Below, piece after piece: positions 2,351-19,085 of a stretch of DNA of 19,260 nucleotides. Each line of letters begins with the position of its first letter. The first letter of the stretch is position 1. The translations under genes were made by a program, and so were the position numbers. This stretch comes from Klebsiella phage 6 LV-2017: sequence record KY271400.1. The stretch is one strand, 5' to 3'. Under the pieces are notes generated by a model. The model made no database searches. It was not told the DNA's origin and saw only the letters and a program-made list of their open reading frames with translations.

Positions 2351-2425
2351 TGGAGCATCTGGCGGGGATCGAACCCGCATATTCTGGTTGGAAGCCAGAC
2401 GTAATTACCAAACTACGACAGATGC
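2351..2425 (-). tRNA. tRNA-Gly (anticodon UCC) with encoded CCA
   Basis: Hand-folded cloverleaf: 7-bp acceptor (GCATCTG/CAGATGC), D-stem GTAG/TTAC, anticodon stem TCTGG/CCAGA, loop CTTCCAA with U33, UCC and A37. T-arm is GCGGG-TTCGATC-CCCGC. Discriminator is U73. Confidence 0.7.
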
Positions 2426-2662: not shown

Positions 2663-3472
2663 TTATTTAGTCACCCGAGAGAGAATGACATCAGCGTATG
2701 ATTCCTGTTTGTGACATTCGGATACCAGCTCCTCGAAGAACGGTTGCAGCTGCTCATAAGCTACCGTTTTCTTAATGTCAGTCACGGCCCTTACCCCTTC
2801 CAGCACCGTCGAAAACTTCATGCGCGCATAACCTCTTCCGCTACAGCGTTCGCATACTTTCATTACCGGTATCCCAATGCGCTCGCTGGCCTCTTTATCC
2901 AGTACCTTTCCTTTCCCATTGCAGCGACACGAATTGCTGATAACACCCTTTCCGTTACAGGTTGAGCATTTAACTTTGACCACCTCGCGGGCCTCGCTCC
3001 AGCACTCCCAGTGACTTGGGAGAACTGCACGGGACATCTTTGCCCAATAAGGTGGCTTACCCCACGGATATGAGCATTTATTGGTGAATACTTGAGCTTC
3101 TGTGAAGCCAGCCCCAGCGCAACAAGAGCATTTTCTAACGCTGGCAGCACTTCGTGTGTAATCCTGGTATGCAAAAGCACACAGAACTTCGAGAACTCTT
3201 TTGCGAACGTCATGGCTGAGTTCTGAAACGATGTTAAAGCGGATTGATAATCGCTCTGCTGATTCATAAAGTAGCTCCATTGCTCGGTCAGGTGTGCTTA
3301 CCCCGATCTTTGCCAGATAGAGGTCGAAGCCGAATCCGCACTTGGCATTTACCAGCCCAAGAGCAGCCATGATGTCAGTGCCGGTTAGACCATCCGATGC
3401 AGTAGCCCGTGGCGAGTCGCTCAGCATTGGTGATTTAGGCGCGAAGTATTTGGCGATAGATTCGAGGTTCAT
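2663..3472 (-). CDS. Q-like late antiterminator with three DnaJ-type CxxCxGxG zinc-finger repeats
   Basis: It is the last gene of the nin operon, directly upstream of the PR'/tR' elements. It carries CSTCNGKG, CRCNGKGK and CERCSGRG repeats. Its size (269 aa) fits the long Q-family variants. Confidence 0.5.
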   Translation of the reverse strand: MNLESIAKYFAPKSPMLSDSPRATASDGLTGTDIMAALGLVNAKCGFGFDLYLAKIGVSTPDRAMELLYESAERLSIRFNIVSELSHDVRKRVLEVLCAFAYQDYTRSAASVRKCSCCAGAGFTEAQVFTNKCSYPWGKPPYWAKMSRAVLPSHWECWSEAREVVKVKCSTCNGKGVISNSCRCNGKGKVLDKEASERIGIPVMKVCERCSGRGYARMKFSTVLEGVRAVTDIKKTVAYEQLQPFFEELVSECHKQESYADVILSRVTK

Positions 3473-8120: not shown

Positions 8121-8986
8121 GACCGGTTCTCCCGATAGCTGTCCCAGGTAAACGAAATCGTGCAGCCGCCGCCGTCGTTCATGCGGTCGATGACGCGCTC
8201 GCCGATAAACTGCGTCAGCTCATCCTTCGGAAGGTTGCTGATCAGGATCGTCGGCTTCAGGCGCTCGTAGCGGGTGTTGATGATTTCAAACATGATCATC
8301 TTCTCGGCTTCGCTGCCAAACTGCACACCAACCTCATCGACAATGAGAAGGTCTGGCTTCGTGAAGTAGCGGATCACCTCATCCTCAGTGCGCGTGGCTG
8401 TTTTTGACCAGGTCGATTTAAACTCCCGGGCAATCTTCAGCGCCGTCGTGAAAATGACTGAGCTTTGGTGGTGCTCAATCACATGGCGGGCAATGGCCAG
8501 CGCAAGGTGGTTTTTACCGGTACCAGGCTTGCCACACATAACCAACCCACCGCCCTGCTGGAGGCGATCAGTCCATTTCGATGCGTAGGCCTGGCAGACC
8601 CGTAATGCTCGCTCAGAATCCTTCCCAACAGGCTTGTAGCTGTCCAGAGTGCACGTGGAGAAGCGCTCTGGTATGTCCAGCTGTCGAAGCAGCCTTTCTG
8701 CAGTTTGCTGGCGAACTCGCTTATCCCAGCGAACCTTTTCATCCCTCAGAAAATTCAGTTCGTCTTCCAGGCAGCCCGGGCAGCGTGTCGGCGGTGATGG
8801 CAGATTGATGATGCTGCTGGTCAGGATCCGCTTGCGCTGCTCATACTCGCCATGCTTTTCGCAACAGACGCGCTCGATAACCACCTCGCAATTCGGGATG
8901 TCTTCCGGTGGCTTACTCAGCTGATCAAGCATCCGCTCAATGGCAGTGATTTTTTCTTCCAGTTCCATGATCAGTCCCTCGCCCAT
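8117..8986 (-). CDS. DnaC/IstB-like helicase loader (replication protein P analogue) with N-terminal Cys zinc-ribbon
   Basis: Walker A is GKPGTGKNHLALAIA. Walker B is LLIVDEVG. It lies directly downstream of O. Confidence 0.85.
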   Translation of the reverse strand: MGEGLIMELEEKITAIERMLDQLSKPPEDIPNCEVVIERVCCEKHGEYEQRKRILTSSIINLPSPPTRCPGCLEDELNFLRDEKVRWDKRVRQQTAERLLRQLDIPERFSTCTLDSYKPVGKDSERALRVCQAYASKWTDRLQQGGGLVMCGKPGTGKNHLALAIARHVIEHHQSSVIFTTALKIAREFKSTWSKTATRTEDEVIRYFTKPDLLIVDEVGVQFGSEAEKMIMFEIINTRYERLKPTILISNLPKDELTQFIGERVIDRMNDGGGCTISFTWDSYRENRS

Positions 8987-9825
8987 GATGGGATTTCAGT
9001 CTGCCCGTAATCCTTCCCTGCGAAATTTTCGGCAACTCGCACCTGTTGACTTGGTTGAGGCTTGGCACCATTTGGCTCAAACAGGCCTTGCCAGCCATTG
9101 GCGATGCTGCGGTTGATAATTTCTTCGGGCGCGTAACCGTTCAGTCTGCAGCGGTCCAGCAGGTTGATAGCCTGGGTGACCGTCTGCTGAGACTTGATCG
9201 GCTTTTTCAGGTCGCGACGATATGCCACCCATGACGACCAGATTTCTGCAGAAAGCCAGTCAGGCAACTGAACAGCTAACGCATCGAACGAAACCGCCCG
9301 GGGGGATTTAGGGGGGTTATTAATATTGTCTTTATTGTCTTTTGTATGTTTGTCTTTTGTGTTTACCTGATTCGGGTAATAGGCGTTACCTGATTCGGGT
9401 AAACTTTTCTTACCTGATTCGGGTAATGTTACCTTTTTCAGGTAAGGTTTTTTTTCTGTACCTTTTACGGGTAAAGATGACCATTCGCTGACCGTTTTAT
9501 TAATCCCGATAACACGACCGGTTTGAGTTAATATCCCCCGCTTAACCAGGACGCTTTTTGCAGCTGAGCACTTATGCGGGAGAATGCCGGTCAGCTCCGA
9601 GAGCTGCTCGTTACTGACCCAGTCAGATTTCTTGTTGAAGCCGTATGTTTTGCGCATGACAGCCATGAACACCAAAAGCTGATGCTGCGACAAACCCGCA
9701 CGCATGACAGCTTCAAGGAGCTCATTGGCGATGCGCGTAAACCCATCGTCGAGATCTGCCACGCGCAGCTCCTGTAGTGCCACGACAGGCACAGGGAAAT
9801 TGATTACTTCGGCAGTATTTGCCAT
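8971..9825 (-). CDS. Replication initiator O
   Basis: An N-terminal Phage_rep_O-like domain and a low-complexity linker (KDKHTKDNKDNINN) are encoded exactly over the iteron/AT-rich ori. Confidence 0.85.
   Translation of the reverse strand: MANTAEVINFPVPVVALQELRVADLDDGFTRIANELLEAVMRAGLSQHQLLVFMAVMRKTYGFNKKSDWVSNEQLSELTGILPHKCSAAKSVLVKRGILTQTGRVIGINKTVSEWSSLPVKGTEKKPYLKKVTLPESGKKSLPESGNAYYPNQVNTKDKHTKDNKDNINNPPKSPRAVSFDALAVQLPDWLSAEIWSSWVAYRRDLKKPIKSQQTVTQAINLLDRCRLNGYAPEEIINRSIANGWQGLFEPNGAKPQPSQQVRVAENFAGKDYGQTEIPSWARD
9296..9474. repeat. Origin of replication inside the O gene: three perfect and two degenerate TTACCTGATTCGGGTAA iterons (23-24 bp period) plus an adjacent AT-rich block
   Basis: Iterons are at 9363, 9386, 9410, 9429 and 9458. 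The AT-rich stretch is 9300-9362. Confidence 0.7.
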
Positions 9826-9910: not shown

Positions 9911-10132
9911 TCATGCTTCAAAATCACCTTTCTCTCCCGGCCTGTTAGAAATCAGGATGGCCAGCAGCAGCGACATGTTCGGCAGCAGACTTTCCCGCCA
10001 GCGACTAACCGTCGACTTATTCACTCCGGCCACTTTGGCGATATTCGTGGTTCCCAGTTCAGCTATCTGGCTGTGTAACCAGCTTTCTATCCTGCGAGCC
10101 TCCACTTTGTTGCGTGTCGTTGAACTCTCCAT
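9911..10132 (-). CDS. cII: CII-like transcriptional activator
   Basis: ARRIESWLHSQIAELGTTNIAKVAGVNKSTVSRWRESLLPNMSLLLAIL aligns with lambda CII ALRIESALLNKIAMLGTEKTAEAVGVDKSQISRWKRDWIPKFSMLLAVL. Confidence 0.75.
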   Translation of the reverse strand: MESSTTRNKVEARRIESWLHSQIAELGTTNIAKVAGVNKSTVSRWRESLLPNMSLLLAILISNRPGEKGDFEA

Positions 10133-10172: not shown

Positions 10173-10400
10173 TCAGGCGGCCGGTGAATGCGCGCTCAGC
10201 AACTGAGCAAGGTCAGGCCTGATCTCTGCCGCCTTAATCTTGCCGTTGGTCGCAGACACGATTTTCATTACATAGCGAGCGTCAATTCCGCCGCCATGCA
10301 GCCAGCGCCAAACTGTCGGCTGCGCTACGCCACACAGATCGGCCAATTTTTTCTGACTGCCAGCGATATCAATTGCCTTCTGGATGGTTTTGTTCGTCAT
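10173..10400 (-). CDS. Cro-like HTH repressor (75 aa, internal start of the 10173..10442 ORF)
   Basis: HTH is KKLADLCGVAQPTVWRW. An AGGA SD lies upstream of Met15. It is divergent from cI across the operator region. Confidence 0.6.
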   Translation of the reverse strand: MTNKTIQKAIDIAGSQKKLADLCGVAQPTVWRWLHGGGIDARYVMKIVSATNGKIKAAEIRPDLAQLLSAHSPAA

Positions 10401-10511
10401 GTTCCAATTCCTATAAGTATTGGTGCAAAATAATAATAGCAATGCGTATTGGTTTTAGCAATAGCAAAACGTGTTTTGACCAGTAATACGCAAGCGTATA
10501 AATTTGAGATT
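10401..10511. promoter_or_regulatory. OR region: operator half-palindromes (TAGCAATGCGTATTGG etc.) and divergent promoters. The PRM-like promoter TTGACC-17-TAAATT starts essentially at the cI AUG.
   Basis: The -35 is at 10476-10481 and the -10 at 10499-10504, with the cI ATG at 10512 and no SD (leaderless, like lambda PRM). The operator motif is shared with OL. Confidence 0.5.
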
Positions 10512-11210
10512 ATGAAAAAAGAAACTCTTGCAGATCGTTTAAACGAGGCCATGGCTTCGGCTGGAATGTCACAAGGGGCGCTTGCGAAGGCCTCAGGTAT
10601 TGCTCAGCCAACCATTTGGCGCCTGGTGAGTGGAAACGCCAGGGGTTCAACAAAAATTGTCGAGATAGCTAATGCTTTGGGCGTCAGGTCTGAATGGTTA
10701 TCAACCGGAAATGGACCGATGCGCGATGACGGCCAGCTCCCTCGCGCTGCCCAGGTTAAAAGTCAGGATACTGATGCATTCAGGATTGATGTGCTGGACC
10801 TTATGGTTAGTGCCGGGCCGGGCATCGTGAACCAGGAGTTCGTCGAGATTCTCCGTTCTGTTGAGTATGAGCCAGCTGAAGCCCGCCACATGTTCGATGG
10901 GCGTAAGGCTGAGAACATCCGGATCATCAACGTCCGGGGTGACAGCATGTCCGGCACGATTGAGCCGGGTGATCTGCTGTTCGTCGACATCAGTGTTAAG
11001 AGCTTCGACGGCGACGGGATATACGCCTTCCTGTACGACGATACTGCTCACGTCAAGCGCCTGCAGAAGATGAAAGACAAGCTGCTGGTTATCTCAGATA
11101 ACAAGAGCTATGCAGCCTGGGACCCGATCGAGAAAGACGAGATGAATCGGGTATTGGTGTTCGGAAAGGTGATCGGCAGCATGCCGCAGACGTACAGGAA
11201 GCATGGGTAA
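10512..11210 (+). CDS. cI: CI repressor (N-terminal HTH, C-terminal S24 LexA-like peptidase domain)
   Basis: HTH is QGALAKASGIAQPTIW. The C-terminal GDSM...GD..FVD motif is the S24 autocleavage domain. The start was moved to Met22 to clear the operator. Confidence 0.85.
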   Translation: MKKETLADRLNEAMASAGMSQGALAKASGIAQPTIWRLVSGNARGSTKIVEIANALGVRSEWLSTGNGPMRDDGQLPRAAQVKSQDTDAFRIDVLDLMVSAGPGIVNQEFVEILRSVEYEPAEARHMFDGRKAENIRIINVRGDSMSGTIEPGDLLFVDISVKSFDGDGIYAFLYDDTAHVKRLQKMKDKLLVISDNKSYAAWDPIEKDEMNRVLVFGKVIGSMPQTYRKHG

Positions 11211-11249
11211 AAGATTGTTTTTAATGAAGTTAAAATGAAGGAAAATAAT

Positions 11250-11513
11250 ATGTCAGGAAAAGAATACACAATTCAGCCTAAGTTTATGTCTGCGACATCC
11301 ATACTCATTCCGCCAGATAACACACAGGCTATGATCACCTTTTATAACCATGAGTTTACACATGCTCCGGCTAATACAAACGCAGAAGGGCAGATGCAAA
11401 TAAAAGTCGACTTGGTTCCTCAGGAATCAATCATTATGACCCCAAGCCAAGCCATCCTGCTTGCTGAGTCATTAATAACCGCACTTAAAGATAGTGGCTT
11501 ATGGAAAGAATAA
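11250..11513 (+). CDS. Moron gene A (87 aa), co-transcribed with cI. Member of the candidate novel two-gene exclusion/abortive-infection module.
   Basis: An AAGGA SD lies 8 nt upstream. About 40% GC versus 55-60% in the flanks. It is in the rexA position. No recognisable family. Confidence 0.5.
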   Translation: MSGKEYTIQPKFMSATSILIPPDNTQAMITFYNHEFTHAPANTNAEGQMQIKVDLVPQESIIMTPSQAILLAESLITALKDSGLWKE

Positions 11514-12100
11514 CTCCAACTTCATCTCCATTTACCAAAACCATACCTAGTGTGGTGATTACGGCAACTCTTGTTGGAGCAGGCGTTACAGCTTATGATG
11601 GGGGCGCATTAAGTTCTTGGGAGAGTCAAAGCATTCGGTTGCCGCATGACTCATTTTCTGGATTTGATACTAAAATACACTTATCAGATGCGCCACCTAA
11701 TCATCAATCAGCGGACGTTAAAGTGAGCACTTTTACCAAAGATGAGCTGAATGCAAAGCTAGCACAAAACAAAGCCGAAGCTGATTCGGTTGCAGCTGGC
11801 ATGAAAACTGAAATGGCAAACTTCAGAACAGCTTACGTTGAGAGTTTTTCTGAAATATCAAAAACTTTAAGCCGTATTGAAGCTAAGGCAGATGCAACTG
11901 AAAAACGACTGACTCAAGCTCAGTGGATTGTGTCCCTGGTGATCAGTATTTGCGCCGTAACCTTATCTGCTGTCATATTTTTCTCGAACAAAAGTGCTCA
12001 ACGTAACGATTCGAATCACAATATGGCTAGCCAACCCACCGCAACGCTTGAACAGAGTCACCAAGGCAGTAATGCCCCCCTTCCCCCCAAGTCTTATTGA
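11501..12100 (+). CDS. Moron gene B (199 aa): predicted helical/coiled-coil protein with a C-terminal TM anchor (WIVSLVISICAVTLSAVIFF) and a possible N-terminal hydrophobic segment
   Basis: It overlaps gene A by 13 nt and is AT-rich. It sits in the rexB position and is followed by the operon terminator. Confidence 0.55.
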   Translation: MERITPTSSPFTKTIPSVVITATLVGAGVTAYDGGALSSWESQSIRLPHDSFSGFDTKIHLSDAPPNHQSADVKVSTFTKDELNAKLAQNKAEADSVAAGMKTEMANFRTAYVESFSEISKTLSRIEAKADATEKRLTQAQWIVSLVISICAVTLSAVIFFSNKSAQRNDSNHNMASQPTATLEQSHQGSNAPLPPKSY

Positions 12101-12126
12101 CCCGGCCACCGCGCCGGGTTTTTATT
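12101..12126 (+). terminator. Intrinsic terminator of the cI-moron operon (CCCGGC-CACCGC-GCCGGG + TTTTTATT)
   Basis: A 6-bp GC stem with a 6-nt loop is followed by a T-tract immediately after the stop codon at 12100. Confidence 0.65.
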
Positions 12127-12129
12127 GCC

Positions 12130-12333
12130 CTACTCTTCCCTCAGCATCAGCACATCCAGTGCCAGCTCCACAGGCAGATCTACCTGGTCACCCTGCCACA
12201 ACATCTGAATCATCTCTATCAACGCCTCTCTTGATGGCTCGCGCTTCTCAACCAGCAGCTGCATAACCGCTATCCCGATAACCTGCGCAATCTGCGGGTG
12301 CATTTCTGCGAAAAACTCATCCTCATTCGACAT
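12130..12333 (-). CDS. Small acidic helical protein (67 aa). It is convergent with the cI operon and starts about 50 bp from OL.
   Basis: Internal Met with an AAGGG SD. Sequence is MSNEDEFFAEMHPQIAQVIGIAVMQLLVEKREPSREALIEMIQMLWQGDQVDLPVELALDVLMLREE. No family recognised. Confidence 0.45.
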   Translation of the reverse strand: MSNEDEFFAEMHPQIAQVIGIAVMQLLVEKREPSREALIEMIQMLWQGDQVDLPVELALDVLMLREE

Positions 12334-12379: not shown

Positions 12380-12480
12380 AAAAAATAAATTCATTTAGCT
12401 ATCAATGATTTAATAGCCATTGCTATCAATTAATATCAATACGTATTGCTATGGTTAATACTCATTGCTATTATCAACTC
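12380..12480. promoter_or_regulatory. OL/PL region. An 18-bp near-palindrome TATCAATACGTATTGCTA lies at 12434-12451, with additional ATAnnCATTGCTAT sites. Candidate PL is TTGCTA-17-TATTAT (12446-12474, plus strand).
   Basis: The same TAGCAAT/ATTGCTA half-sites recur in OR (10436-10453). The operator overlaps the -35 as in lambda OL1. Confidence 0.5.
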
Positions 12481-12553: not shown

Positions 12554-12670
12554 ATGATCCGCGAAGAAGATAAAACTGAGTGGTTTAAGTTTCTGGCACA
12601 CGCATTCGCCATCGTCGTATGCGTACTGGTAGCAAGCGCGTTCTGCCTGATGCCTGGTGGTTCAGCATGA
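12554..12670 (+). CDS. Small hydrophobic peptide (38 aa), first ORF of the PL operon
   Basis: A strong AAGGTGA SD lies upstream. Sequence is MIREEDKTEWFKFLAHAFAIVVCVLVASAFCLMPGGSA. One TM. It is below the ORF-track cutoff. Confidence 0.3.
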   Translation: MIREEDKTEWFKFLAHAFAIVVCVLVASAFCLMPGGSA

Positions 12671-12777
12671 GCAGAAACGGCATTCGTTCACTGATTTACT
12701 GCCTGCTGATCTGCGGCGTTATCTGGACAGCGTTGATTATCAAAATTCTGCACGTTACGGGGGTGTTCAATGGTTAG
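12667..12777 (+). CDS. Small hydrophobic peptide (36 aa), ATGA-coupled to the previous one
   Basis: Sequence is MSRNGIRSLIYCLLICGVIWTALIIKILHVTGVFNG. One TM. Confidence 0.3.
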   Translation: MSRNGIRSLIYCLLICGVIWTALIIKILHVTGVFNG

Positions 12778-17049: not shown

Positions 17050-18309
17050 ATGAGTAAAGAATCATACCCAACGGGCGTTGAGAACCACGGAAAATCACTC
17101 CGCATATGGTTCATTTTTAAAGGTAAGCGTGTCAGGGAAAATCTCGGTGTCCCTGACACCGCTAAAAACAGGAAGGTGGCCGGGGAACTGCGAACATCAG
17201 TTTGTTTCGCTATCCGCATGGGGACCTTTGACTATGCGGCCCAATTCCCCAACTCGCCAAATCTGAAAAATTTCGGCATCGGCAAGAAAGATATCACCGT
17301 GAAAGATTTGTCTGAAAAATGGCTTGAGCTTAAACGGATGGAGATCTGCGCTAATGCCATAAACAGGTATGAATCGGTAGTGAGAAGCATGCTGCCGAAG
17401 GTTGGCGCGAAGAAGCTGGTTTCGTCTGTGACAAGAGAAGAGCTTCTCTATATCAGGAAGGATATGCTGGCGGGGGATAAAGGGTTGAGTGTGGTGACTG
17501 TAAACTACTACATGACCACGATCGCGGGTATGTTTCAGTTCGCTGTTGATAATGGCTATGTGAGTGAAAACCCGTTTAACGGCATCAAGCCGCTAAAGAG
17601 GGCCAGGATAGAACCAGATCCGCTCACACGTGATGAATTCGTTCGCTTCATAGATGCCTGCAAGCATCAGCAAACGAAAAACCTGTGGTCAATTGCGGTA
17701 TACACAGGATTACGTCACGGTGAGCTGGTATCCCTCGCATGGGAAGACATAGATCTGAAAACTGGAACGATGACCATACGCCGGAATTATACGAAACTCG
17801 GTGATTTCACTCTACCAAAAACCGAAGCCGGTACCGACAGGGTCGTTCACCTGATCAAGCCAGCCATTGACGCTTTGAGGAACCAGGCGGAAATGACCAG
17901 GTTAGGCAGGCAGTATCAGGTTGAGGTACAACTGCGGGAGTATGGCCGAACGGTCATTCACGACTGTACATTTGTGTTCAATCCTCAGTTGGTTAAAAAA
18001 AGTGGCAGCGTAGGTTACCTGTACAAAGCCGATTCAGTTGGTGACTCATGGGATGCGGCGCTTAAACGGTCAGGTTTAAGGCACCGCAAGGCGTATCAGT
18101 CGAGACACACTTACGCCTGCTGGTCGCTGTCTGCCGGGGCCAATCCGAGTTTCATTGCCAGCCAGATGGGACACTCCAGCGCCCAGATGGTTTTCAATGT
18201 TTACGGCGCCTGGATGGCCGACAGTAGCAGCGATCAGATTGCCATGCTGAACCAGAAATTATCGGACTTTGCCCCATCCATGCCCCATGGCATGGTTATA
18301 GGAATATGA
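17050..18309 (+). CDS. int: Tyrosine integrase
   Basis: The catalytic R...HxxR...Y is present (RHTYA, MGHSS, NVYGAW). A GGGAGGG SD lies upstream. It is the last phage gene before the host DNA. Confidence 0.9.
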   Translation: MSKESYPTGVENHGKSLRIWFIFKGKRVRENLGVPDTAKNRKVAGELRTSVCFAIRMGTFDYAAQFPNSPNLKNFGIGKKDITVKDLSEKWLELKRMEICANAINRYESVVRSMLPKVGAKKLVSSVTREELLYIRKDMLAGDKGLSVVTVNYYMTTIAGMFQFAVDNGYVSENPFNGIKPLKRARIEPDPLTRDEFVRFIDACKHQQTKNLWSIAVYTGLRHGELVSLAWEDIDLKTGTMTIRRNYTKLGDFTLPKTEAGTDRVVHLIKPAIDALRNQAEMTRLGRQYQVEVQLREYGRTVIHDCTFVFNPQLVKKSGSVGYLYKADSVGDSWDAALKRSGLRHRKAYQSRHTYACWSLSAGANPSFIASQMGHSSAQMVFNVYGAWMADSSSDQIAMLNQKLSDFAPSMPHGMVIGI

Positions 18310-19085
18310 GAATGATAAAAATCAGTAAGTTAGTGCATCACGCCCGCCACTTTAACTGCGTGGAGGGCAACACCACCCTGTATGCGCTACCAAAGCCGGA
18401 GATTGTCGCCCGCTGGTACGAACAGACCCACGATGACTTCCGCTTCTGCTTCAAATTCCCGGCCACCATCTCGCACCAGGCCGCCCTGCGCCATTGCGAC
18501 GAGTTAAGCAGCGAATTTTTTGCCCGCCTGGCGCCGCTGGCCTCGCGCATCGGCCAGTACTGGCTGCAGCTGCCGGCGACGTTCGGTCCTCGCGATCTCC
18601 CCGCGCTATGGCATTTTCTCGACGGACTGCCGAAGGATTTCACCTACGGCGTCGAAGTTCGTCATCCCGAGTTTTTCGCCAAAGGGGAAGCGGAACAGCA
18701 GCTCAACCGCGGGCTGCACGAGCGTAACGTCAACCGCGTGATCCTCGACAGCCGCCCGGTCCATAGCGCTGCGGCCACCAGTCCGGCGATGATCGATGCC
18801 CAACAAAAGAAACCGAAGGTGCCGGTACATGCGGTGATGACCGCCCGACAGCCAATGGTGCGGTTTATCGGCGGTGACGATATGGCCCATAACCGGGAAC
18901 TGTTTCGCGTCTGGCTTCAGACCCTGGCGAAGTGGCATCAGTCGGGGACCCCGTGGTTGTTCCTGCATACCCCGGACATTGCTTTCGCCCCGGCGCTGGT
19001 GGATACCCTGTGGGGTGACCTGCGCGCTGCCCTGCCGGCGGCAGGAAATGCGCCGTCGATTCCGCAGCAATCTTCTCTTTTCTGA
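18306..19085 (+). CDS. yecE: DUF72/YecE-like host protein whose 5' end has been replaced by phage-derived sequence (integration target)
   Basis: From ARHFNCVEGNTTLYALPKPE onward it reads as a conserved YecE-type protein. The first 12 or so codons (MRMIKISKLVHH) overlap the int stop and look phage-supplied. Confidence 0.55.
   Translation: MRMIKISKLVHHARHFNCVEGNTTLYALPKPEIVARWYEQTHDDFRFCFKFPATISHQAALRHCDELSSEFFARLAPLASRIGQYWLQLPATFGPRDLPALWHFLDGLPKDFTYGVEVRHPEFFAKGEAEQQLNRGLHERNVNRVILDSRPVHSAAATSPAMIDAQQKKPKVPVHAVMTARQPMVRFIGGDDMAHNRELFRVWLQTLAKWHQSGTPWLFLHTPDIAFAPALVDTLWGDLRAALPAAGNAPSIPQQSSLF

Follow-up and report, generated by a model that had tools for sequence, protein, structure and literature searches.

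A swappable two-gene cassette of the HK97 gp49-gp48 family in the rexAB position of a Klebsiella prophage, a candidate exclusion module

What is the role of the two AT-rich genes that directly follow the repressor gene cI in a Klebsiella prophage, at the site where lambda carries rexAB? We addressed this question in a stretch of 19,260 nucleotides from Klebsiella phage 6 LV-2017 (KY271400.1), referred to here as the window, which in its whole length represents the early and immunity region of an integrated lambdoid prophage. The two genes, named A and B here, form a cassette that is exchanged among related phages, and their products are homologues of Gp49 and Gp48 of phage HK97; we consider them a candidate exclusion module. 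A preliminary description of this DNA had placed two overlapping genes of 87 and 199 amino acids (aa) between cI and the operon terminator, which is borne out by the alignment of homologues, by gene calls and by the terminator at 12099-12126. The features of the cassette, in coordinates of the window, are as follows.

11212..12095: swappable cargo cassette
11250..11513, plus strand: gene A, 87 aa, soluble product, homologue of HK97 Gp49 (phrog_26809)
11501..11513, plus strand: overlap of the A stop and the B start, 13 nt, ATGGAAAGAATAA; the same -13 overlap is present in the window, HK97 and ST15-VIM1phi2.1
11501..12100, plus strand: gene B, 199 aa, homologue of HK97 Gp48 (phrog_5820), predicted single-pass, C-terminally anchored membrane protein

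The boundaries of the cassette were apparent from a blastn comparison with four sister Klebsiella phages, in which homology stops at 11211, at the cI stop codon, and restarts at 12094-12100, at the foot of the terminator. Between these same flanks, phage ST101-KPC2phi6.1 carries genuine RexA (PADLOC E value of 1.7e-109, Pfam 1e-81) and RexB (PADLOC 1.3e-60, Pfam 5e-73; all defence models used here are those of PADLOC-DB v2.0.0, 2023). The same slot holds a 358-aa ParA-like AAA_31 ATPase in ST11-VIM1phi8.2 (L002 3599-4675), a 125-aa hypothetical protein in RAH1 (L001 3716-4093) and a diverged A/B pair in ST15-VIM1phi2.1. At the nucleotide level, the homology between the window cassette and a further A/B locus, L010, is confined to the stretch encoding the B helix (11738..11923). 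Between the cI stop codon and the operon terminator there is thus an AT-rich accessory cassette of two genes that is exchanged horizontally, as the preliminary description had supposed. Its assignment to the rexAB position likewise held, and the synteny comparison suggested there revealed a known defence system, RexA/RexB of ST101-KPC2phi6.1, swapped into the slot. Of the composition given in that description, the value of about 40% guanine plus cytosine (GC) for the pair agrees with our figures (0.413 for A and 0.437 for B), while the background is 53-54% (cI 0.534, window 0.532, flanks 0.539-0.540) rather than 55-60%. At third codon positions, GC is 0.41 in A and 0.35 in B, against 0.63-0.69 in cI, recT and exo. 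The region between cI and N has been described as a hotspot of mosaicism in which the abortive-infection systems rexAB and bstA reside and are expressed together with the repressor (PMC8585504). This hotspot offers further candidates in the ParA-like ATPase of ST11-VIM1phi8.2 and the 125-aa protein of RAH1, for which no PADLOC match was found.

The last 29 bp of cI (11181-11209) are repeated with 96.6% identity in RAH1 (L001 3485-3513) and ST101-KPC2phi6.1 (L003 3076-3104), in both cases 3' of a small open reading frame (ORF) that follows cI and just before the cargo; this repeat may be a recombination junction for cassette exchange. In the IMG/VR sequence IMGVR_UViG_2663763389_000006 (L015), compared with window positions 10806-12176, we observed the same cassette and the same C-terminal (S24) domain of cI, together with an unrelated cI N-terminal domain and an unrelated cro. 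Recombination appears to have taken place inside cI at the domain boundary, so that the cargo would travel with the repressor cleavage domain across immunity types.

Both products of the cassette belong to protein families of unannotated function. Protein A matches phrog_26809 (E value of 3.6e-23, residues 5-92) and HK97 Gp49 (45% identity, E value of 6e-19, 95% of the query; tblastn), and protein B matches phrog_5820 (3.8e-15) and HK97 Gp48 (32% identity, 1e-18, 89% of the query; tblastn). We regard Gp49 and Gp48 (NP_037734 and NP_037733, 88 and 216 aa) as true homologues. In HK97, as in the window, the two genes stand in the same order directly after cI and share the same 13-nt overlap, and they lie before OL/PL and N. 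Window B and Gp48 furthermore share an N-terminal PS(V/I)(V/I)xSATL motif, a conserved helix, the C-terminal transmembrane (TM) segment and a Pro/Gln-rich tail. However, the sequences are strongly diverged, a repeat in the middle of the helix of HK97 B (EIKGEIGGLK) is absent from window B, and the host here is Klebsiella. A homologous pair is also found in HK225 and in Lambdavirus PDP110P1. By homology to both Gp49 and Gp48, and by gene order, overlap and position behind cI, we assign the pair to the HK97 gp49-gp48 family. To call it undescribed, as had been done initially, was therefore an overstatement, since homologues exist in HK97 and in PHROG families. The HK97 proteins were reportedly sequenced in 2000. 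Their homology transfers no mechanism to the window pair, since the function of the HK97 genes is likewise unannotated; PADLOC gave no match for Gp48 or Gp49.

Gene A had been listed as an ORF at 11235..11513 (92 aa), but its start falls at the ATG at 11250 (87 aa), both when 13 homologues are aligned and in gene calls made independently for public assemblies, and a GAAGGA Shine-Dalgarno sequence is present upstream. Conservation of the 13-nt overlap in HK97, in ST15-VIM1phi2.1 and in L010, whose A/B junction has the same ATGGAAGGAATAG as the window, indicates that A and B are translationally coupled. In comparison with 94-97% identical copies in IMG/VR, the ratio of nonsynonymous to synonymous substitution rates (dN/dS) was 0.06-0.26 for A and 0.19-0.25 for B, and these low values argue that both are real genes under purifying selection. 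The exact gene B protein was found in many public Klebsiella assemblies (57 blocks of the collection, with chromosomes of ∼5.3 Mb), and none of 5,426 complete E. coli genomes was matched in a megablast search with the cassette.

Is the pair, then, a form of Rex? It resembles lambda RexA/RexB, a system that depolarises the membrane and excludes T4 rII among other phages, in its slot, in forming a two-gene operon together with cI (as deduced here) and in combining one soluble with one inner-membrane protein. The preliminary description had seen no match to RexAB, and consistently no PADLOC model recognised it as such: at E values of ≤1, neither the RexA models (PF15969/PDLC02339) nor the RexB models (PF15968/PDLC02340) matched A or B. 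The same RexA models detected RexA of ST101-KPC2phi6.1 with E values of 1e-81 and 1.7e-109. Lambda RexA comprises 279 aa compared to 87 aa for A, which has no RexA-like fold match, and lambda RexB is a polytopic protein of ∼140 aa with four TM segments, whereas B combines a long helix with just one TM segment, at its C terminus. We thus rejected the identity of the pair with the Rex system, since the RexA and RexB models fail and B has one TM segment only.

Other known proteins showed partial likeness as well. BstA of prophage BTP1 is similarly encoded downstream of the repressor, whose promoter it presumably uses, with a Rho-independent terminator after it (PMC8585504). In contrast to the pair, the BstA system consists of one large DNA-binding protein and a DNA-encoded self-immunity element, and A and B show no homology to it (no PADLOC match). 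Proteins of the CCDC90-like/DUF1640 family (PF07798) resemble B in that a long helical region is followed by one C-terminal TM segment. This family and Baculo_PEP_C are generic helical or coiled-coil families without an assigned function in bacteria. Among 93 sequences scanned, 35 distant relatives of B matched PF07798 (best E value of 2e-8) and 20 matched Baculo_PEP_C; window B itself was not listed for PF07798 at E values of ≤1, and the B-family profile retrieved no PDB chain of the PF07798 family. The matches may reflect coiled-coil composition. A holin or XhlA-like identity of B was also considered and rejected, with an E value of 0.035 for the holin family phrog_4237 over the TM segment, 0.59 for an Rz-like spanin and no match to a Pfam holin or XhlA model.

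For protein A, an AlphaFold2 model built on a 13-sequence alignment reached a mean predicted local distance difference test score (pLDDT) of 80. The predicted fold is an antiparallel beta-sheet (strands at 6-8, 15-19, 27-43 and 49-63) with a C-terminal helix (65-82), and a structure search with this model gave no significant fold match. The A family has few members, as 5.8 billion sequences yielded 15 clusters at 90% identity. Sequence-profile searches of the PDB with the A and B families yielded nothing below an E value of 0.5.

Protein B can be divided into the following segments.

11540..11596, plus strand: residues 14-32 (TIPSVVITATLVGAGVTAY), beta-branched, mildly hydrophobic motif shared by the window, P0001, P0003, P0006, HK97 and ST15
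11738..11923, plus strand: residues 80-141, portion of the long helix predicted to lie in the cytoplasm, conserved more than any other segment in the family (ELNAKLAQNKAEV..MKTEMANFRT..ATEKRLTQAQW), from the AlphaFold2 helix and the invariant columns
11924..11983, plus strand: residues 142-161, TM segment WIVSLVISICAVTLSAVIFF, Kyte-Doolittle 19-residue mean of 2.68
11984..12097, plus strand: residues 162-199, polar Ser/Gln/Asn/Pro-rich tail, predicted to be disordered and probably periplasmic

AlphaFold2 models B as a single continuous helix at residues 80-169 (block pLDDT of 79-92 over 81-160), and residues 1-75 and most of the tail (172-194) have a pLDDT below 50 and are predicted to be disordered. 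The beta-branched N-terminal motif (PSVVITATL...) occurs solely in B proteins that have Gp49-type partners, and we propose residues 14-32 as a candidate A-binding peptide. A signal peptide or first TM segment in this stretch was rejected: its Kyte-Doolittle maximum of 1.46 is under the TM level, no consistent cleavage motif is present in homologues, and the core is kept in family members that lack the stretch.

How far this organization extends became apparent from a profile search with the B family, in which 118 relatives were found at E values of ≤1e-3 among 1.84 billion representatives. All 93 scanned sequences (window B and 92 family representatives) match phrog_5820. One C-terminal TM segment is present in 88 of 104 B-family representatives, and an N-terminal one in none of the 104. 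The family is built of three parts, namely, a constant core at ∼76-165 that includes the TM segment and has 20 invariant columns across 28 clusters, a hypervariable N-terminal part of 40-100 residues and a Pro/Gln-rich tail. A small ORF of 87-141 aa lies directly 5' of B in all 10 pairs compared, the window included. Seven pairs directly follow a cI-type repressor (in the window, HK97, ST15-VIM1phi2.1, Lonsdalea, Rahnella and two metagenomic/Enterobacterales contigs); the other three have different locations, which in at least two cases are among the tail genes of a prophage. In a Pantoea dispersa prophage (L008, 3722-4585), a diverged pair of 92 and 188 aa is encoded antisense amid tail genes, with a GC content of 0.39-0.41 compared to 0.47-0.55 and with its own terminator-like hairpin, reading on both strands, right after the B stop codon. 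Judged by these surroundings, the Pantoea copy, which lies outside the immunity region, behaves like an autonomous moron. The L012 pair adjoins a tail-fibre-like gene, and that of L013 is on a short contig with no repressor within the available sequence.

The N terminus of B and the ∼90-aa upstream partner vary together, while the helix-TM core stays constant. Gp49-type partners are found in the window, HK97, ST15-VIM1phi2.1 and L010. Alignment of this type with the partner group of Pantoea, L012 and L013 (hhalign E value of 3.7e-4, probability of 36%) is suggestive, though not proof, of a distant relationship, and the partners in Lonsdalea, L011 and Rahnella have no detectable similarity. Scans with peptide patterns for the B family retrieved one locus in 185,579 GTDB species genomes and four in IMG/VR, which points either to a rare family or to patterns that were drawn too tightly.

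The features surrounding the cassette in the window are listed next, from left to right.

8971-9825, minus strand: O-like replication gene
9911-10132, minus strand: cII
10173-10442, minus strand: cro
10433-10475: OR operators, repeats matching the OL copies
10476..10504, plus strand: PRM-like promoter (TTGACC-17-TAAATT), from the consensus scan and sequence only; function by analogy with lambda PRM
10512..11210, plus strand: cI repressor, 232 aa (gene call), first gene of the operon, with HTH and Peptidase_S24 domains (Peptidase_S24 E value of 8.7e-18; HTH_3; Phage_CI_repr; phrog_4 E value of 7.5e-67)
12099..12126, plus strand: intrinsic terminator closing the cI-A-B operon, part of the conserved right flank common to the sister phages
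12410..12474: OL operators, three 17-nt repeats (12410-12471; TTAATAGCCATTGCTAT type) shared with OR at 10433-10475, and PL-like promoter; far end of the immunity region
12446-12474: PL-like promoter, a promoter-like site from the consensus scan

Operator-like repeats flank the A/B pair on both sides, OR on one and the three OL copies on the other, and the pair therefore lies within the immunity region (OR...OL), like lambda rexAB. The PL-like and PR-like promoters have identical hexamers (TTGCTA-17-TATTAT). The PRM-like promoter ends 7 nt 5' of the cI ATG (10512), which suggests a leaderless cI message, and with it a leaderless cI-A-B transcript, as in lambda. Directly 3' of gene B, the terminator stem (12099-12120) has 8 pairs, 6 of them G-C, and is followed by TTTTATTG; besides this site at 12099, the scan found no terminator-like site on the plus strand between cI and the next genes. 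Since no terminator intervenes, we infer that cI, A and B are co-transcribed in the lysogen from the PRM-like promoter. The co-transcription claimed in the preliminary description thus has the promoter and the uninterrupted course of the operon in its favor, and is itself deduced from them.

As to the remainder of the window, its nearest deposited relatives are the Klebsiella phages vB_Kpn_RAH1 and ST11-VIM1phi8.2. The minus strand also encodes a DnaC/IstB-like loader and, further left, NinG and the Q antiterminator (2663-3472), just downstream of which is a tRNA-Gly gene with the anticodon TCC (2351-2425, minus strand; Rfam, 59.6 bits). On the plus strand, cI and the A/B pair are followed by genes for GamL, RecT, an exonuclease, Dam, the integrase and a host-like DUF72 protein. 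The integrase gene (Arm-DNA-bind_2 and Phage_integrase; 17050-18309, plus strand) overlaps by 4 nt with the DUF72-family gene (E value of 1.2e-47), which is chromosomal in appearance; the prophage end or attachment site should be near 17050-19085. Between the cassette terminator and OL, a 67-aa ORF (12130-12333, minus strand) converges with gene B. It matches the function-unannotated family phrog_3946 (E value of 1.4e-37), gave no Pfam or PADLOC match and is present in all sister phages, whatever their cargo. The first ORF past the PL-like promoter (12619-12777, plus strand) encodes a 52-aa protein, part of which is strongly hydrophobic; the next gene, according to gene calls in identical contigs, is of the KilR family. 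An N-like antiterminator was not recognised in the Klebsiella phage; in HK97, Lonsdalea and L011, N follows the cassette.

What function would fit a pair so placed and so built? We tentatively read it as a lysogen-expressed two-component exclusion module that is Rex-like but not Rex-homologous, a proposal that in our judgment falls just short of being probable. The wider proposal that the HK97 gp49/gp48 family as a whole is an unrecognised prophage anti-phage system, replacing RexAB functionally without homology to it and with a modular division into sensor and effector, we put forward with a little more reserve. The evidence for defence is one of position and architecture only. More speculatively, A and the variable N terminus of B might serve as an exchangeable sensor, with the constant, C-terminally anchored helical core of B as the membrane effector. 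Under this model, B would be anchored to the inner membrane through the one TM helix at its C terminus, with the long helix and the disordered N-terminal region in the cytoplasm and the short polar tail in the periplasm, and B would probably oligomerise through the long helix. A, a small cytoplasmic protein of beta-sheet plus helix, would dock in the cytoplasm onto the beta-prone N-terminal peptide of B, which co-varies with the type of A partner. A cue derived from infection might then alter the A-B complex, and the altered complex could exclude superinfecting phages either by membrane perturbation, as in Rex-like abortive infection, or by a block of DNA entry.

Several observations weigh against this proposal. 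A and B had no significant match in Pfam, NCBIfam or PADLOC (in PADLOC, none at E values of ≤1), the best weak score for the pair being that of DUF6377 (E value of 0.0012, far under its cut-off), and the pair thus falls, as far as the models can tell, outside every catalogued defence family scanned. The same searches agree with the earlier characterisation of A as small, soluble and without a recognised motif, and returned no confident match of either protein to an unrelated, non-defence family. We found no literature on the function of HK97 gp48/gp49 or their relatives. Not all genes in this slot serve defence, since Hex of phage 434 is reported to modulate repressor cleavage (PMC3564112). 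Contact between A and B is suggested by their co-occurrence alone, for which co-inheritance might account. The topology of B is ambiguous from its flanking charges, with three Lys and Arg residues before the TM segment and two after it. Of the architecture given in the preliminary description, the helical region, the one C-terminal TM segment, the polar tail and the mildly hydrophobic N terminus were all recovered. The coiled-coil-like character was not: a heptad-register test of residues 79-141 was not significant, as 18-20% of shuffles reach the score, and "coiled coil" is for B a description by analogy. Since B is predicted to be essentially one helix, its structure says little about its activity. 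Finally, the rarity of the family (118 among 1.84 billion representatives, one locus in 185,579 genomes) leaves few independent contexts from which to judge.

Could the pair serve the prophage itself instead, as a self-regulation or maintenance module that tunes its own lysis-lysogeny switch, induction or lysis timing? The tight linkage to cI in 7 of the 10 pairs would be in line with such a role, as would L015, in which the cassette travels with the C-terminal domain of cI while the DNA-binding domain differs. Precedents are available, since lambda RexA biases the switch to lytic growth and 434 Hex protects the repressor (10.1101/2021.04.19.439022 and PMC3564112), and the helix and C-terminal TM segment of B weakly recall holins or lysis-accessory proteins (phrog_4237, E value of 0.035). 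This holin match is not significant, however, and the pair also occurs away from repressors, among tail genes in Pantoea (L008), near a tail-fibre-like gene in L012 and with none in the sequence of L013. Moreover, sister phages with the same cI lack the pair and carry RexAB or other cargo instead, so that it is apparently dispensable for the switch. We thus regard self-regulation as unlikely.

We are similarly doubtful that the pair acts in lysogenic conversion, as a host-fitness moron whose membrane complex changes the Klebsiella envelope, stress tolerance or host interaction. Envelope proteins are often encoded by the AT-rich morons that prophages express; B is membrane anchored with a Pro/Gln-rich tail that is probably periplasmic, and its exact sequence is widespread in Klebsiella assemblies (the 57 blocks mentioned above). 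Yet Pfam and NCBIfam revealed no signal peptide, lipobox, adhesin, toxin or enzyme domain in A or B, and the greater part of B is probably in the cytoplasm or disordered. Phages of very diverse hosts and lifestyles carry homologues, from E. coli HK97 to those of plant-associated Lonsdalea, Pantoea and Rahnella, and this argues for a role centred on the phage over one tied to a particular niche.

The two-gene layout, in which a small upstream gene is translationally coupled to one for a membrane protein, also recalls a toxin-antitoxin-like addiction pair, with B as a membrane toxin that A restrains, the prophage being stabilised and defence secondary. That the cassette moves as a unit with its own terminator, and that a variable partner is combined with a constant effector core, would suit this arrangement. 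On the other hand, no toxin-antitoxin family in Pfam, NCBIfam or PADLOC was matched, membrane toxins are typically far shorter than 199 aa, and A has neither a DNA-binding nor a known antitoxin fold in its AlphaFold2 model and fold search; we therefore rate an addiction pair as improbable. That A and B are merely decaying or non-functional hitch-hiking ORFs, as the absence of known domains and the predicted disorder of half of B might suggest, is highly improbable and largely refuted by conservation and selection, given the dN/dS values of 0.06-0.26, the retention of pair, order and overlap from Klebsiella to E. coli HK97 at 32-45% identity, the 20 invariant B-core columns over 28 clusters and the confident AlphaFold2 model of A (pLDDT of 80).

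For the proposed exclusion module, the swap of RexAB for the pair at the exact same junctions in related Klebsiella phages is close to the strongest guilt by association that sequence can provide on its own. The pair is, moreover, simple and unusual in its architecture. Since HK97, a genetically tractable laboratory model phage, carries a homologue, the mechanism, if true, would be directly testable there. If the pair is active in exclusion, it would represent a new membrane-acting exclusion system together with a model for its study. It would then also have a bearing on phage therapy against K. pneumoniae lysogens, because dozens of public assemblies encode exactly this B protein. Even if the pair does not act in defence, it still marks a conserved, selected function linked to the repressor.

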